In this document: positions 15,001 through 24,000 of the stretch, piece by piece | Position numbering within the stretch: position 1 is the stretch's first letter | Layout of the letters: the number at the start of each line of letters is the position of its first letter | Source of the DNA: Candidatus Cloacimonadota bacterium | GTDB taxonomy: Bacteria; Cloacimonadota; Cloacimonadia; JGIOTU-2 | Length of the DNA: 64,000 nt | Assembly (NCBI GenBank): GCA_049903315.1 | Contig: JBNGBT010000006.1 | Location: 64,001 to 128,000 of the forward strand | Reading direction: 5' to 3' | Made by a program: the position numbers

Positions 15001-18000
15001 TTGCACGGATAAGAAGATCTGGTATATTTCGATAATCAGCTTCAATTGTTGCATTTATCACATCATAATCAATTCCCTGCTGCTCTAGGTACATGCGTAT
15101 TCTCTGTGTGAAGAATTCTATAAGGTCAGCAAAAAAATCTTCTTTAGAATTTTCATAAAGAGTTTCGCTCTGCTTCATAAATTCTTCAAGATTTAAGGGG
15201 AGGTCATGTTCTGCGAGGATGGAAATAATTCCATTTCCTGCTCTTCTTATCCCGAGAGGATCGCTTGTGCCTGTTGGCTGCAGCCCGATGGAAAAGCACC
15301 CAACAATCGTATCCATTTTATCAATAATAGATAGTATAATTCCTGTTTTTGTTTCAGGAAGAATGTCACCTTTATAGCGCGGCAGATATTGTTCAAAGAG
15401 TGCTTGAGCCACTTCAGGATCTTCGCCGTCATTCAATGCGTATTGCCAGCCCATATACCCCTGCAATTTGGTGTATTCCTTTTCTCCGAGAATAAGGGTC
15501 GTCAAATCGGATTTGCAGAGATAGGCAGCTCTTTCAATTTTATCTTTGTCATAAGTAAGCATCCCTGCGCACCATTTTCCAAGGGATTTCATTCTCTCTA
15601 TTTTATCAAATAGAGTGCCGAGATTTTTTATAAAAGTGATTTTTATCAGTTCCTCTATCCGTGCTTCAAGCGGCGTTTTTTTATCTGTATCAAAGTAAAA
15701 CTTCGCATCGCTCAATCGCGCATTAATGACCCGCTCATTACCATAAAGAACTTTGTCGATCGTGTCCGGATTGCTATTGCCGATGCCGATGAAAAAGGGC
15801 ATAATTTCATTATCTTCATTCTGCACAGAAAAGGATTTTTGTGTTTCTGCAAGAGTGGTAGTAAGTACCTTTGAGGGTAGTGATAAATATGATGTGTCAA
15901 ATGTTCCCATGATTGGAGATGGAAATTCAACGAGGTCAGTAACCACCTCAAGCAGCTCATTGTTCTCGACAGGAATTCCGCCAACTTTGCGTGCAGTGAT
16001 TCCAATTTCCTTCTCGATAAATTCTTTTCTTTCTTCTCTATCTGCAATAACAAAATGCTGTTTTAATAAAGGAACATATTTATTAATATAATATAAACTA
16101 ATTAAATTATGTAACTTTTCAAACCTGTTTCCTAGAGAGAATCTGTCGCTTTTTATTCCACCGATCTCGAGCTCGAGAAGTTCATCATTATACAATGCAA
16201 GCAACCAGCGTATGGGACGTGCAAAGAGAAGTGTGCCGTTTCCCCAGTGCATTTTTTTGGGGAAAGGGATTTTTGGAATGACATCCACAGAAATAGCGCT
16301 GAGTATTTCTTCAGTTGGTTTTCCTTTTATGTGTTTTATGACACTAAGATATTCACCCTTAGGAAGTTCTTTAATAATAATGTATTTCTCTTCGAGATTT
16401 TGTTTCTTAAGAAATCCCTGTCCCACTTTATTAAGATTGCCATCCTCATCATAAGCAATGCGTGCAGGAGGTCCCACGATCTCTTCAGAAGAATCAGTTT
16501 GTGAATGGGGAAGTCCGGTTATCGTTATGCACAATCTGCGCGGAGTAGAATAGTATTTTATCTCATCAAAATTAAGGTGTGCTTCGGTCAGTTTTGAGGA
16601 AAAATATTCCTGTAAAAATGTAATCGCAGGTTGGATGTAAGAAGCGGGTAATTCTTCAGTGCCAATTTCATAGAGATAGGAATTATTTTTCATGTTGAGG
16701 GGGAAATTTCCCGATGGGGTAAAGCGTGTCAAGATTTTGGGTGTGCTGATTTATTTTGCTTCTATTCTCTCTCCAGCAGGAATGTCGCGGGTCCGAAGTT
16801 TAAAAGGTCGATTTCCATGAGCGCACCGAATTTCCCAAGTTTTGTTGGAACTCCAAGCGCATTGAGGGATGTCCCAAAATACTCATATAATGCTTCAGCT
16901 TTTTCTGGAGGAGCTGAATCGGAGAATCCAGGACGGTTTCCTTTATTTGTGTCTGCATACAAGGTGAATTGCGAGATCAGCAGCACTTCTCCACCGATAT
17001 CTTTTACGCTGAGATTCATCTTGCCTTCTTCATCTTCGAAGATGCGGAGGTTCGCTGTTTTTTTTGCAAGGTAATCTGTATGAGCTTTGGTATCATTGTG
17101 CCCGACTCCCAGAAAAATGAGCAGTCCCTTTCCTGTTTTCGAGATAAGAGTACCGTCCACAGAAACAGAAGCACGGTTCACACGCTGAATAAGCAGCCGC
17201 ATAGCACCTCCCGAAATTTGATGTGAGTAGACTATTCTTGATCGAAGTTTTGTCAACAATCATCAATTTCTTGACGTGAAAAATCAATATACTCATACAA
17301 GAACTTCCTATGAAAAAGAGCAAAAGCAGCATATTTGAACTGAATAAAACATTGACTGTGAAGGGCATGGGTTTACATTTTGGCAATCAAAAGAGGAAGA
17401 CAGCCTATATACTTTGATACTATCGAATTTTCGCTCATGAAGAGCACGCCGCCAAATGACGGTATAAAACTGTAAATAATTGAATAATTATGTATAAGGA
17501 TAGTAAAAAGTTTAATAGGTATGAAGGCTAAATCTGTTTTCTTTATTGGCACCCTGTTTTTTGTTGCAGCAGGTTACACATTTCTGCAGCATAATACAAT
17601 ACAGGCAGAAACCATAATCCAAAAAGGTGAGGAAAAGTCACACGAGAAAACAATTGAAGTCACAGACAGCACTGGAAAAACACAAAAAGACACACTCCTC
17701 ATTGCCGCAGATACTCTCTTTATTGAAAAGCCGGAACTCGGTATTGTAGATACAATTTCCTATGCTGATACATTAAATTTAACAAAAGAGCACGGAAAAC
17801 AACAAGATTCCGTTGAAGTCGTTCCCAAGAAAATTACTTATACACATCGCGTGTCATCTTTTCCCAGTTTGTTTCATCATACTATTTCCATGCCCCTTAT
17901 GGCTAAGAAGGACTCTGCTGAGGTTTTAGAATACTTAAAGAAAGAAGCATTTCCACAAAAGAAGTTCAGTAGATACTTTATAAATTCACAGCTCTATGAA

Positions 18001-21000: not shown

Positions 21001-24000
21001 ACCATAATGGATACTACACTCCACAAGCCAGCCGATCTGCAGCCGGATGAAGCATTTGAAGTGGCAACAGAAAACAACTCCAATAATCTCGACTACACGC
21101 CACCTCCCGGTTCTTTAACTGGAGATGATGATAAAGAAAAAGAGATAGAGCAGTCGCTCGTATTGAATATACAAAATCTTGAGTCGGATAGATACATTTA
21201 TGCAAAGGAGACATTTTCAGAAAAAATAGATCTGCTCAATTACAGCAAAGTGAAATTATGGGTGTATGCACAGCATGCGACCGGACCACCGCCCAATGCA
21301 TCAGATACTGAAACAATTATTTTCCGTCTTGGTTCAGACACGCTGAACTATTACGAATATCGGCAGTCCGTGCAGGTATATGATGATATTGACTCAAAAA
21401 TGACTGAGAGCTACTGGCAGGATATTACGATTGATTTCACAGAATTTACAGATCTGAAAAAAAGCGATATTCCGGACACTACTGCCCACCTCAGAATGGT
21501 TGGCACTCCTTCTCTGGGGTATATCAAGCAGGTAGCAGTGGGACTAATACGACCGGATAGTATGGAAACTTCTTTCAGCGGACGTATTTTCTTTGATGAT
21601 ATTCGTGTGAGTGATCCCTATAGCGAGATTGGAATGGCAACCCGGTTAACGCTTGATACAAAAATTGCAGATTTTGCAGATATACTTATAAATTTTGAAA
21701 GGAAGACTCCCAATTTCTACTCTCTCGGTGCAAGAGCAGGCAGCGGATCGGACAGTTATTCCTATTCTTTAAGAAATAATCTTTATCTTAATAAATTTAT
21801 GCCCGACGCATGGGGCTTTAACATTCCTGTGAAATTCGATTATTCCTATGGAGAAAGCAAGCCTCGTTTCCAGCCGAATTCGGACGTGAAACTCATTACA
21901 CCGGAAGAAAAAAATAAATATAAAACGACCAACGAAACAAAATCTGCATCGATTTCTCTGAGAAAAAGCAAGGCTTCGACAAACTTCTTTGCTAAGCTCT
22001 TTCTTGATAATACCTTTATCAGAGCAGAAGTAAGGCACACGAAATCTCTCTCTCCAACTAAGCGTGATACAACCTATAAATATACAGGAACATTGAATTA
22101 CGCTTTGAATTTCAACAAAACCAAACATGATCTGAAAATATTTGAAAAATTCAGTGTATACTACCTTCCTCAAAAAATTACAATTAATACGGATTATAAT
22201 TATACAAAATACAATACATGGACTAAGCAGAGCCAGGATACATTGTTCACAAATGATGAAAAGGCACCTGAGCATACACTTAATCCGAAACTTACCGTAA
22301 AATACGAGATGTTTACTGATTTTGATGCGGATTATATTCTCAACATGACACGTGATCTTGAAAAGAAAAATAAAGTCGGGAAAACGAATATCGGAGTAGA
22401 GACTGCCAGAAATCAAGATGTAACCCTGAAATATGTCCCGGACTATATGAAAAAGTTAAATTTCAATACACAGTATAAAACTTTGTATAAACAAAACCGC
22501 AGAGAAAATCTTCAAAATGACACCCTGAACATTCTATATGAAGTAGAAAATGAACGTAAAGCTTCGGCAAACATCACACTAAAATTCGATAAATATGGAG
22601 AATATATTATGGGGCTCATTGAGATTGATGAAGAGGTGAAAGAAGAGAAAGTAAAACCTAAAGAGGAATTGATCGAGAAGGAACCAGAAAAGGAAATTGA
22701 GGAGATAGATGAAAAAGAGCTTGAAGATAGAGAGAAACAAAATGAACTTGAAAAACAGGAAAAAGGCAAGGAAGAGCCGAAAAATGAAATAAAAGAAGAG
22801 ATTGTTGATTCTGTTGATGTAGAAATAGACACTCCTGAAGGTGAAGAAGAAGTCATAATAGAAGAGAAAACAACGTCATTCGGATTTAAAAATATCGCAC
22901 TCTATACTACAAAAGCTATTGGATTCTGTATTAATAAAATCGGTTCGGTGGATCTTAGTTATTCAAATACATACAGGACAAAATACAAAGTTTCCCCTGA
23001 TTCATTACCTGATCTCTATTATCAGCTTGGACTCAGGGATAAAACATTCGGGCAAGAACAATCCGTAGCTCAGATCGATGCCTTCTCCGGGAACACACGA
23101 ACACAATTCAGATTTTTTACACACTTGAGTACAGAGGTTTCGGCAAAATACAATCTTGATTTGAATAGAAGTTCCGGTACTAAGACAAAAACAGAATCAA
23201 TTACTTTACCCGGAATCATTCTTGGCTACGACGGATTAGATGAAATTCTGAAAGTGAAATTTTTTAAGGGCAGCAATATCTCCTCGAGTTTTTCCCGTAT
23301 GATCTCTAATACTGGAAATGGATTCTGGAATACTCCGGATCGCACAACAGAAAAATTTATGTTCAGTCCGCTCATTTCATTTAATACAAAGCTCCTTAAT
23401 AAAATAAATATAAATCTCGGTTTCAATTATAACTTCAGCAACCAGATAAGTTATGTAGAAAATAACAAGAAAACACGAACCGATGAAGCGGGTTTCAGTG
23501 CGACTTTCCGCTATTCGTTCCAGTCTGCCAAAGGTGTCAAAATTCCTCTGCTCGGACGCTTGAATATGACCAATAAGACCGACATGGACCTCGATATCAG
23601 TTATACTTCAAGTAGTTCTCAATCTGAGAATAGCGTGACCGGCAAGTGGGATTATTCTCTAAACAAAAATACACTCAAGATCGAACCAAGAGTCGCGTAT
23701 AATTTCAGCAAAGATATCAATGCAGGACTCACTGCGCGTTATGAAGCTCAAAAGGATGTGAAAGCAGGCACTTCAACTACAACAACAGCGATAAATATCT
23801 GGGTCGAATTCAAATTTTAATATGAGGGAACAGGACTATACTCGCCTTATCGCAGTGGGGGATATTCATGGGCAGTTTGACATGCTTCGGGAATTGATGG
23901 AAAAAATCAAACCTTCGCAAAACGATTTTTTTATTTTCATTGGCGATTATATTGATCGGGGATATAAAAGTAGAGCGGTGCTCGATTACCTGATTGAATT

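Follow-up and report, generated by a model that had tools for sequence, protein, structure and literature searches.

A type IX secretion translocon without a detectable motor-and-ring module in Cloacimonadota

The window, 64,000 nucleotides of a Cloacimonadota genome (G000), carries the sprA gene of a type IX secretion system (T9SS) in which no GldL/PorL–GldM/PorM motor and no GldK/PorK–GldN/PorN ring could be recognized by sequence. In current models, release from SprA needs this motor and ring. A motor-less phylum, along with many further groups that share its condition, would mean that the translocon can operate in another way and that it probably predates the motor, and it makes the nature of the energy step and the evolution of the T9SS testable. 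Here, we propose that this is a working T9SS consisting of the translocon half alone: SprA, an SprE/PorW lipoprotein, Skp, a general PorV, dedicated PorV-like carriers, and PorU.

The translocon half

The translocon and one example of its cargo, which bears a type A C-terminal sorting domain (CTD), lie in the window as follows.

17521..23820, forward strand: SprA/Sov translocon, one ORF of 2099 aa, TIGR04189 575.4 bits (cut-off 200)
30505..31914, reverse strand: type A CTD cargo, 469 aa, TIGR04183 40.9 bits (cut-off 23), an example of 150 or more

The first 760 aa of SprA match F. johnsoniae SprA (PDB 6h3i/6h3j, E 1e-18), and in the alignment the N-terminus retains the SkpA-binding region and has an additional stretch of ~150 aa. 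SprA measures 1725–2155 aa in motor-less Elusimicrobiota and Cloacimonadota versus about 2350–2590 aa in motor-bearing genomes. A profile search found an orthologue over the cut-off in 115 of 121 Cloacimonadota genomes. At 20 other Cloacimonadota loci, the sole invariant neighbor of sprA was a type III pantothenate kinase gene (20/20), and no motor genes adjoined it. No conserved energizer gene lay next to sprA at these 20 or at 17 other loci.

By its profile score (534.6 bits, cut-off 420), the ORF at C69:24254-27460 is the PorU sortase of G000; PorU-like proteins occur in 115 of 121 Cloacimonadota genomes and exceed the cut-off in 90. The PorV candidate at C11:367592-368644 scores 260 bits with NF033709 (cut-off 90) and 158 with the PorV equivalog model (cut-off 250), and it matches PorV in the PDB (E 2.8e-24). 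Nine members of the family were found in G000, the query counted (phmmer, E≤1e-7), and some dedicated PorV-like carriers sit immediately after their own cargo gene. A single gene located after bamA is, in our reading, skp. At least 150 type A CTDs are present: 150 of the 190 TIGR04183 candidates were scored, and all exceeded the cut-off. A separate CTD profile built here matched 178 of 2645 called ORFs, amounting to 14% of coding residues, and 157 of the 178 have an N-terminal hydrophobic stretch versus a background of 42%, with the hydrophobicity rule serving as a signal-peptide proxy. Among the features that define a Bacteroidia-type T9SS, SprA, a PorV carrier, type A CTD cargo, an SprE/PorW lipoprotein, and PorU are found in G000. 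The initial annotation had named SprA, PorU, several PorV/PorQ shuttles, and about 155 type A CTD genes, and its list agrees with these scores; among the shuttles, two scored genes exceed the cut-off of 90.

PorW, which had been left unsearched, turned up as an SprE/PorW orthologue. Its best NCBIfam match is PorW/SprE (94.9 bits, under the cut-off of 250). The hhalign comparison with one Bacteroidia SprE gave 97.8% probability (E 7.7e-13) over 301 columns starting at the N-terminal motif. The predicted model consists of finger helices, a disordered insert, and a disordered tail. Foldseek placed chain I of 8gl8, the extended translocon, first (TM 0.40/0.47), at an E-value nearly level with those of unrelated TPR proteins, and the SprE profile did not reach F. 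johnsoniae SprE (PDB) at the sequence level. The lipoprotein was assigned from hhalign, the architecture, Foldseek, and its loss together with SprA. SprE is present in 167 of 177 genomes of the phylum.

The missing motor and ring

Profile searches (--max, 8578 ORFs of G000) gave a best E of 0.025 for GldM (86 sequences) and 0.079 for GldL (49 sequences). Two queries each were run against G000 alone for the ring: the best E for GldN was 0.053, and matches to GldK were confined to the FGE domain in a kinase-like protein of 1104 aa. The ring is the weaker test because GldN diverges fast. A topology screen of G000 left five candidate GldL/GldM pairs, none of which we judged credible. No GldL_N domain exceeded the cut-off in 121 Cloacimonadota genomes; the single match, which spans a stop codon, was rejected. 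The GldM and GldL profiles were widened with diverged motors that score under the NCBIfam cut-offs. The broadened GldM profile gave weak matches in 8 of 177 phylum genomes (E 1.7e-5 to 7e-3), confined to the helical part, and these were rejected as unrelated coiled-coil proteins (MlaD-like and RmuC-like, in our labeling). In the positive controls, diverged motors were still picked up at E≤0.01; in one such genome, G139, the genes of a K-L-M-N row score 191 for GldK (cut-off 350), 24 for GldL (68), and 57 for GldM (180), with GldN unmatched. PorG and PorD, for which we take PF19573 and PF16119 to be the models, and Plug were not found in any of the three Cloacimonadota genomes searched, and the Bacteroidia control G141 was positive. 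Motor and ring had been reported as undetectable earlier, the motor also in other Cloacimonadota, and both observations hold. At the sequence sensitivity reached, diverged-motor profiles included, the gap is real, and it is very likely that the system has no GldL/M/K/N homologue. A detection scheme that demands the motor (TXSScan, bioRxiv 031039) would miss the T9SS of such genomes.

The T9SS of F. johnsoniae and P. gingivalis comprises the Extended Translocon (SprA-PorV-PPI-SprE-SkpA-PorD), the GldLM/PorLM motor, the GldKN/PorKN hub, and PorG. It shares with G000 SprA, PorV, an SprE-like lipoprotein, a Skp gene, PorU, and type A CTD cargo. In contrast, no GldK, L, M, N, PorG, PorD, or Plug was detected, SprA is shorter, there are several PorV-like carriers dedicated to their cargo, and in some genomes SprE is fused with a TonB C-terminal domain (TonB_C).

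SprA, PorU, and SprE are jointly missing in the same six closed genomes of one genus (g8), and no CTD exceeded the cut-off in the five g8 genomes searched (0/5). This joint retention or loss points to selection on the whole set. With CTDs on 14% of coding residues and the set retained by 115 of 121 genomes, the T9SS is not a relic, and it is very likely functional in Cloacimonadota. The ExbB of the window behaves alike: its orthologue (48–96% identity) occurs in 107 of 115 SprA-positive and 0 of 6 SprA-negative genomes. G000 has two ExbB-type genes, of which only the one in the window disappears along with the T9SS. The second set (C3:17390-19286) is less likely as an energizer, as a matching ExbB-ExbD-TonB-like set persists in the T9SS-less g8 genomes.

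The TonB operon and the energy step

The ExbB gene lies in the following operon, with cargo genes behind it.

7323..10370, reverse strand: TonB-dependent receptor, 1015 aa, heading the operon; Pfam barrel, Plug, and CarboxypepD_reg over cut-off
6502..7329, reverse strand: ExbB, the proton-channel subunit, 275 aa; PF01618 104 bits
6066..6479, reverse strand: first ExbD; TolR/ExbD models under cut-off, family in 20/20 loci
5650..6057, reverse strand: second ExbD; TolR/ExbD models under cut-off, family in 20/20 loci
4984..5622, reverse strand: TonB, 212 aa; TIGR01352 62.5 bits (cut-off 27.1), PF03544 78.5
1906..4974, reverse strand: secreted protein of 1022 aa; atypical T9SS CTD and glycoside-hydrolase-type N-terminal beta-sandwich
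857..1903, reverse strand: PorV/PorQ-family barrel, 348 aa; NF033709 192.6 bits, PorV equivalog 77.3 (cut-off 250), 20/20 loci
1..823, reverse strand: 5' part of the first tandem ~700-aa CTD cargo gene (C66:62658-64823; TIGR04183), the rest preceding the window

The receptor is kept in 20/20 loci and adjoins ExbB in the closed genomes G003, G019, and G045; it was not found in the g8 genomes G002 and G005. The 1022-aa protein has no Pfam match, falls into unnamed clusters only in the ESM Atlas, and is about 47–53% identical among the loci printed. Its AlphaFold model (pLDDT 83.7) aligns with 9ju0 (Z 19.8, rmsd 3.3, 264 aligned). The top Foldseek match was PorZ (5m11, 157 columns); an assignment as PorZ was rejected, since the match is confined to the CTD. 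The protein is probably the surface partner of the receptor, and the 348-aa barrel is probably its dedicated carrier and anchor and not the general PorV. Four tandem ~700-aa CTD cargo genes with TIGR04183 matches come after the operon, with relatives in 15 of 20 loci. A promoter and terminator scan stayed at chance level (54 versus 47.7 and 15 versus 11.8), and a search for RNA runs that hold sprA listed none.

The TonB set evidently has the receptor for a client, and the usual energizers of TonB-dependent transporters show the same ExbB, two ExbD, TonB, and plug-and-barrel receptor in one operon. Here, the operon adds a T9SS cargo and a carrier, and the C-terminal domain of TonB reappears on SprE. 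A receptor with plug, barrel, and adjoining surface partner is a SusC/SusD-like uptake feature. In this operon the probable partner is no SusD but the CTD protein bearing the beta-sandwich, so the pair may act like SusC/SusD without being a member. The order of cargo gene and own carrier gene resembles type B CTD cargo with its cognate PorP/SprF (PMC12618676), except that the carrier is PorV/PorQ-like. The initial annotation had pointed to a PorV gene beside ExbB-ExbD-ExbD-TonB. The adjacency is correct, but it fails by itself to indicate TonB-powered secretion because the triad of receptor, CTD protein, and carrier exists in 43 of 79 loci of other groups, in all 43 without ExbB, ExbD, or TonB.

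The SprE fusion is an indirect but better clue. TonB_C ends SprE in 9 of 30 loci (five genera, two families), the loci having been ranked by similarity to the fused query and ~20 long SprE genes lying outside the count; SprE of G000, like the majority, is unfused. Most of the fused domains bear the signature of the operon TonB in the alignment, and in four genomes with the fusion, four of the five long TonB_C ORFs are SprE. A large protein collection contained only three such fusions. A short tree did not place the fused domains within the operon-TonB clade, and inspection by eye showed no conserved TonB-box-like strand in either SprE or the N-terminus of SprA. The complex prediction of SprE(20-690) with TonB(108-212) scored 0.00 and counts neither way. 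On the side of a TonB role, PorW of P. gingivalis is reported to contact the ring through its C-terminal domain (PMC8754138); on the other side, Lauber et al. found that F. johnsoniae can do without the C-terminus of SprE (PMC10994853).

In the known T9SS, cargo is loaded onto its carrier inside SprA without energy, and the energy step is the release of the loaded carrier (PMC10994853). Our best guess, a tentative one, is that the proton-powered ExbB-ExbD-ExbD-TonB set drives this release. The TonB C-terminal domain would grip a strand that the translocon or carrier exposes to the periplasm, close to or at the C-terminus of SprE, and so pull the carrier with its load away from the lateral gate of SprA, and the same TonB would double as energizer of the receptor in its own operon. 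If true, TonB would power protein export besides nutrient import. This role is favored because the window ExbB is lost with the T9SS and SprE carries TonB_C in those nine loci. Against it, the receptor heading the operon wholly explains the TonB set, and loss of the set in g8 would be expected if the receptor depends on a partner secreted by the T9SS. A genome with SprA and TonB and no receptor, which would favor the role, was not found, all four Elusimicrobiota genomes examined having receptors, and ExbBD-TonB and T9SS genes are separate from each other in four genomes of other groups. A TonB_C domain carried by an outer-membrane lipoprotein also sits on the side that does not suit the transfer of force; it may be an anchor.

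The outer-membrane step could instead be energy-free, with loaded carriers diffusing off the lateral gate under a ratchet of cargo folding, PorU processing, or an incoming empty carrier, SprE and Skp purely structural, and TonB serving the receptor only; we regard this as somewhat unlikely. Loading requires no energy (PMC10994853), sprA lacks a conserved energizer neighbor, dedicated carriers directly follow their cargo, SprA is shorter in motor-less groups with Plug not found in 3/3, and TonB has a client of its own, all of which suit diffusion. However, cargo remains trapped in F. johnsoniae without the motor, where SprE/SkpA are required for release (PMC10994853), and SprE, finger region included, is conserved in 167 of 177 genomes, which suggests a tie to some force source. 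Alternatively, an unrecognized inner-membrane motor might do the work, either a GldL/M-K/N set too diverged for the profiles or some trans-envelope protein unrelated to it, which is unlikely. Genuine motors can score well under the cut-off, as in the G139 row, the exclusion is at the sequence level, and profiling across genomes covered only some six candidate families. Nevertheless, profiles that include the diverged motors yielded nothing in G000 and coiled-coil noise in the 177 genomes, PorG and PorD, partners of the ring, were likewise not found in 3/3 although a Bacteroidia control has them, and no credible GldL/GldM-topology pair was found in G000.

Other groups and the age of the translocon

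The gap had been read as a trait tied to Cloacimonadota, which does not hold: SprA was found in 50/50 and GldM in 3/50 genomes of other groups, which were picked for carrying a PorV-like gene and are listed without completeness figures. In Bacteroidota, 120 of 151 genomes have SprA versus 39 with GldM. On sequence evidence, the motor-less state is the usual one in the sampled non-Bacteroidia groups. The suspicion that the gap may already be in print proved right for Melioribacter and Ignavibacterium, whose partial T9SS is likewise described, in one sentence of PMC11705866, as SprA and PorV without other T9SS proteins. Its relevant passages and Discussion offer no mechanism, and it reports a Plug, which was found in neither the three Cloacimonadota genomes nor G133; PorD is present in G133. 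Our literature search, with most subscription papers outside it, found no description of a motor-less T9SS across FCB groups or of an SprE–TonB fusion.

In the SprA tree, from which G259 was left out as its longest ORF is not SprA, Cloacimonadota form their own branch, distant from Bacteroidia and with WOR-3, Fermentibacterota, Elusimicrobiota, and Zixibacteria records. A late motor takes three changes versus eight losses for an ancestral one under midpoint rooting. The translocon is likely older than the motor, and the motor-less T9SS probably represents the earlier state, with the gliding motor and ring being additions made in Bacteroidia and in some Rhodothermia. That most SprA bacteria run an ancestral TonB-at-SprE system, later replaced by the GldL/M motor and ring with gliding in Bacteroidia, is more doubtful. 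Conversely, motor and ring could be ancestral (gliding-first) and repeatedly lost, or the translocon could have spread sideways from Bacteroidia, leaving a reduced derivative that is possibly weak or repurposed. A 2025 paper that infers an origin of the T9SS inside the machinery of gliding (PMC12635249), the provisional root of the tree, and the patchy diverged motors among Rhodothermia-like genomes, which indicate that losses occur, speak for such a history. The eight losses, the distant SprA branch, the CTD load, and the broad retention of the set make it quite improbable. The same motor-less state is seen in genomes whose titles read Rhodothermus sp., Ignavibacteriales/Melioribacteraceae, or Caldithrix sp., and these groups include cultured members.

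Translocon, partners and the missing motor

This genome's type IX secretion system (T9SS) is a real, widespread variant. Judged from its genes, it looks like a working system, yet it fails the tests for a motor and ring of the Bacteroidia type. SprA is encoded in the window and SprE on contig C11. By the names of its nearest homologues, the genome belongs to Cloacimonadota.

Window 17521..23820, forward strand: SprA/Sov, a single ORF of 2099 aa, 575.4 bits (cut-off 200)
C11:358213-360447: SprE/PorW orthologue, a 744-aa TPR lipoprotein; best NCBIfam match PorW/SprE, under cut-off

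SprA, as initially annotated, is confirmed by this ORF, which matches F. johnsoniae SprA in the PDB and, in the alignment, retains the SkpA-binding N-terminal region. It has ~150 additional residues at the N terminus, and the type III pantothenate kinase gene found upstream of sprA in 20/20 other loci (L032–L051) is not found here (17260–18000). The sortase PorU (534.6 bits) was also borne out, as was the count of about 155 cargo genes: a profile search finds at least 150 type A C-terminal sorting domains (CTDs), and of the 2645 called ORFs our own CTD profile matches 178, which together account for 14% of coding residues. Six PorV/PorQ shuttles had been listed; the family is present with nine members at E ≤ 1e-7, of which C11:367592-368644 is nearest to true PorV. 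One putative Skp-like gene follows bamA, and no PorG-like gene was found ahead of this pair (putative labels).

SprE, a part absent from the initial annotation, is present. Its N-terminal motif can be followed in an unbroken series from Bacteroidia through Rhodothermia, Caldithrix, and Ignavibacteria to WOR-3 records, and a profile of 30 orthologues aligns with a Bacteroidia SprE over 301 columns (97.8% probability); the orthologue profile did not reach PDB SprE at the sequence level. The predicted structure has finger helices, a disordered insert, and a disordered tail, traits described for SprE (PMC10994853). The best Foldseek match of the model is a chain in the extended translocon 8gl8, with similar E-values for unrelated TPR proteins.

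A diverged GldK-L-M-N row lies at L157:5877-11046 (genome G139) and L154:1101-2108 (genome G124), all under the NCBIfam cut-offs. Its short GldM (335–396 aa) aligns with no more than the model's C-terminal part, and its GldL retains the second-helix glutamate. Since the G139 row (bits/cut-off: GldK 191/350, GldL 24/68, GldM 57/180; GldN no match) shows that real motors can be missed, profiles were built with the diverged family included. Searched with filters off against 8578 ORFs of the genome under study, they gave best E-values of 0.025 (GldM), 0.079 (GldL), and 0.053 (GldN). The sole GldK look-alike, a kinase-like protein with a terminal FGE-sulfatase domain (C11:210022-213336), matched through that domain alone. 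GldL_N is over cut-off in 0/121 phylum genomes, and the eight weak matches of the broadened GldM profile in 177 phylum genomes are all helical stretches in unrelated proteins; in a set of 151 Bacteroidota genomes, the same profile recovers 39, at E ≤ 4e-25. The initially reported absence of GldL/GldM from Cloacimonadota, and of GldK/GldN, thus holds, as judged from sequence and topology, with GldK/GldN searched in this genome alone. This genome, G003, and G019 gave no match for the Plug, PorD, or PorG-like families; all three families occur in the Bacteroidia control G141.

Retention and loss within and beyond the phylum

Among 121 Cloacimonadota genomes of ≥90% completeness, SprA is over cut-off in 115, and PorU-like genes match in exactly these 115. 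SprE was found in 167 of 177 phylum genomes. SprA, PorU, and SprE are all absent from six single-contig genomes (1.5–1.6 Mb) of the genus g8 (G002, G005, G008, G017, G023, and G064), which have also lost the TonB operon of the window; no CTD is over cut-off in 5/5 g8 genomes tested. The T9SS parts are one unit under selection, and g8 is a natural knockout usable for subtractive profiling.

The initial annotation tied the gap to Cloacimonadota, which does not hold: SprA without the motor is not peculiar to this phylum. Fifty genomes of other groups, of unstated completeness, were found via a PorV-like gene (50 of 79 loci); their record titles include Rhodothermus/Rhodothermales, Ignavibacteriales, Neomarinimicrobiota, Caldithrix, Kryptoniota, WOR-3, TA06, Fermentibacteraceae, Zixiibacteriota, and Elusimicrobiota. 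In this PorV-selected set, SprA matched in 50/50 (46 over cut-off) and GldM in 3/50 (one over cut-off, two diverged). Among 151 evenly sampled Bacteroidota genomes, SprA occurs in 120 and GldM in 39, every GldM genome being SprA-positive. GldM had no match in the two records titled Rhodothermus sp.; R. marinus Xyn10A bears a T9SS-type C-terminal domain and was reported as cell-attached (work cited in PMC6987092). SprA has been reported from multiple FCB phyla (PMC12611786), and a T9SS was considered possible in Cloacimonadota (PMC11285876). That surveys might already note the gap proved correct: a brief statement in PMC11705866 gives SprA, PorV, and Plug as present and other T9SS proteins as absent in Melioribacter and Ignavibacterium.

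Four Elusimicrobiota records, outside FCB (L159–L162; G165–G168), have short SprA-like genes (1724–1863 aa) under the NCBIfam cut-off, two of them with PorV-like and CTD genes within a few kb. Putative lptF/lptG-like genes adjoin sprA in 6/17 other-group loci (L161, L162, L166, L167, L171, and L173).

TonB genes and the SprE–TonB_C fusion

Window 857-10370, reverse strand: receptor, ExbB, ExbD, ExbD, TonB, 1022-aa CTD protein, PorV-like barrel

These seven genes stand together in 20/20 loci chosen via the ExbB orthologue, and their order is identical across the 16 of these loci listed completely. The ExbB orthologue occurs in 107/115 SprA-positive and 0/6 SprA-negative genomes; the genome has one second ExbB, whose corresponding set is retained in g8. 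The 1022-aa protein combines a glycoside-hydrolase-type β-sandwich with a PorZ-like CTD. It (1906–4974) and the barrel (857–1903) carry similar acidic DxDxDG..DED repeats, which possibly bind calcium. In 43/79 other-group loci the receptor–CTD protein–carrier triad recurs, in each case lacking ExbB/ExbD/TonB. A Rhodothermus plasmid also carries the triad, adjoining cell-wall enzymes; ExbBD-TonB genes are free-standing in four other-group genomes. The operon is therefore best read as an uptake module, like SusC/SusD, here with its own energizer genes included. If the 1022-aa partner depends on the T9SS, it is to be expected that g8 lost the operon. The adjacency of a PorV gene and ExbB-ExbD-ExbD-TonB pointed out initially is thus weak evidence for TonB-powered secretion.

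A better clue to a role of TonB is a fusion. SprE of genome G033 ends in a TonB C-terminal domain (TonB_C; Pfam 46.5 bits, cut-off 24.6), and such fusions occur in 9 of 30 SprE loci ranked by similarity to the fused query (L342–L346, L354, L360, L362, and L367; one weak, 27 bits), in five genera of families f2 and f6. In four fusion genomes, 4/5 long TonB_C ORFs are SprE. Most fused domains carry the operon-TonB signature, which is absent from TonB of other groups; in a short tree they are not nested within operon TonB. The fusion links TonB with the translocon by descent, not by function. TonB_C domains also serve in peptidoglycan anchoring, which would explain the fusion alternatively. The C-terminal domain of P. 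gingivalis PorW was reported to bind PorN and transmit energy (PMC8754138), and Lauber et al. described the corresponding SprE region as dispensable in F. johnsoniae (PMC10994853). SprE of the genome under study has no TonB_C fusion; a redoxin-like protein fused to TonB_C (C22:35609-36421) is unrelated to it.

Source of force and origin of the motor

The inventory comprises translocon, SprE, Skp-like gene, carriers, sortase, and cargo, with motor, ring, PorG, PorD, and Plug not found; a Bacteroidia-type T9SS, in contrast, has motor and ring. In F. johnsoniae, cargo loading is passive and force is required for carrier release (PMC10994853). Here, we tentatively propose that this force would be supplied by ExbBD-TonB, at or near SprE, a plausible though doubtful reading. 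That release in this system requires no force is somewhat unlikely, and that an unrecognized motor supplies it is rather less likely.

It is improbable that the motor was ancestral and later lost, as would fit Liu et al., who place the T9SS origin within the gliding machinery (PMC12635249). In a midpoint-rooted SprA tree (60 sequences, 1478 columns, one row left out), Cloacimonadota form a separate branch distant from the motor-bearing clade, and an ancestral motor costs eight losses against three changes. The motor and SprA distribution argues for the reverse of the gliding-first order. One label in the tree analysis we take to be P. distasonis. A full-text search of main texts found no description of the phylum-wide test, the joint g8 loss, the Cloacimonadota SprE orthologue, the SprE–TonB_C fusion, or the conflict with the gliding-first model.

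Elsewhere in the window, at 32108–35390 and 38000–38635, a tyrosine decarboxylase-like gene (861 bits, cut-off 905) and an amino-acid antiporter lie near an IS256-family transposase fragment and were possibly acquired. Rubrerythrin, ferritin, desulfoferrodoxin, and flavodiiron-like genes cluster at 58811–63887.
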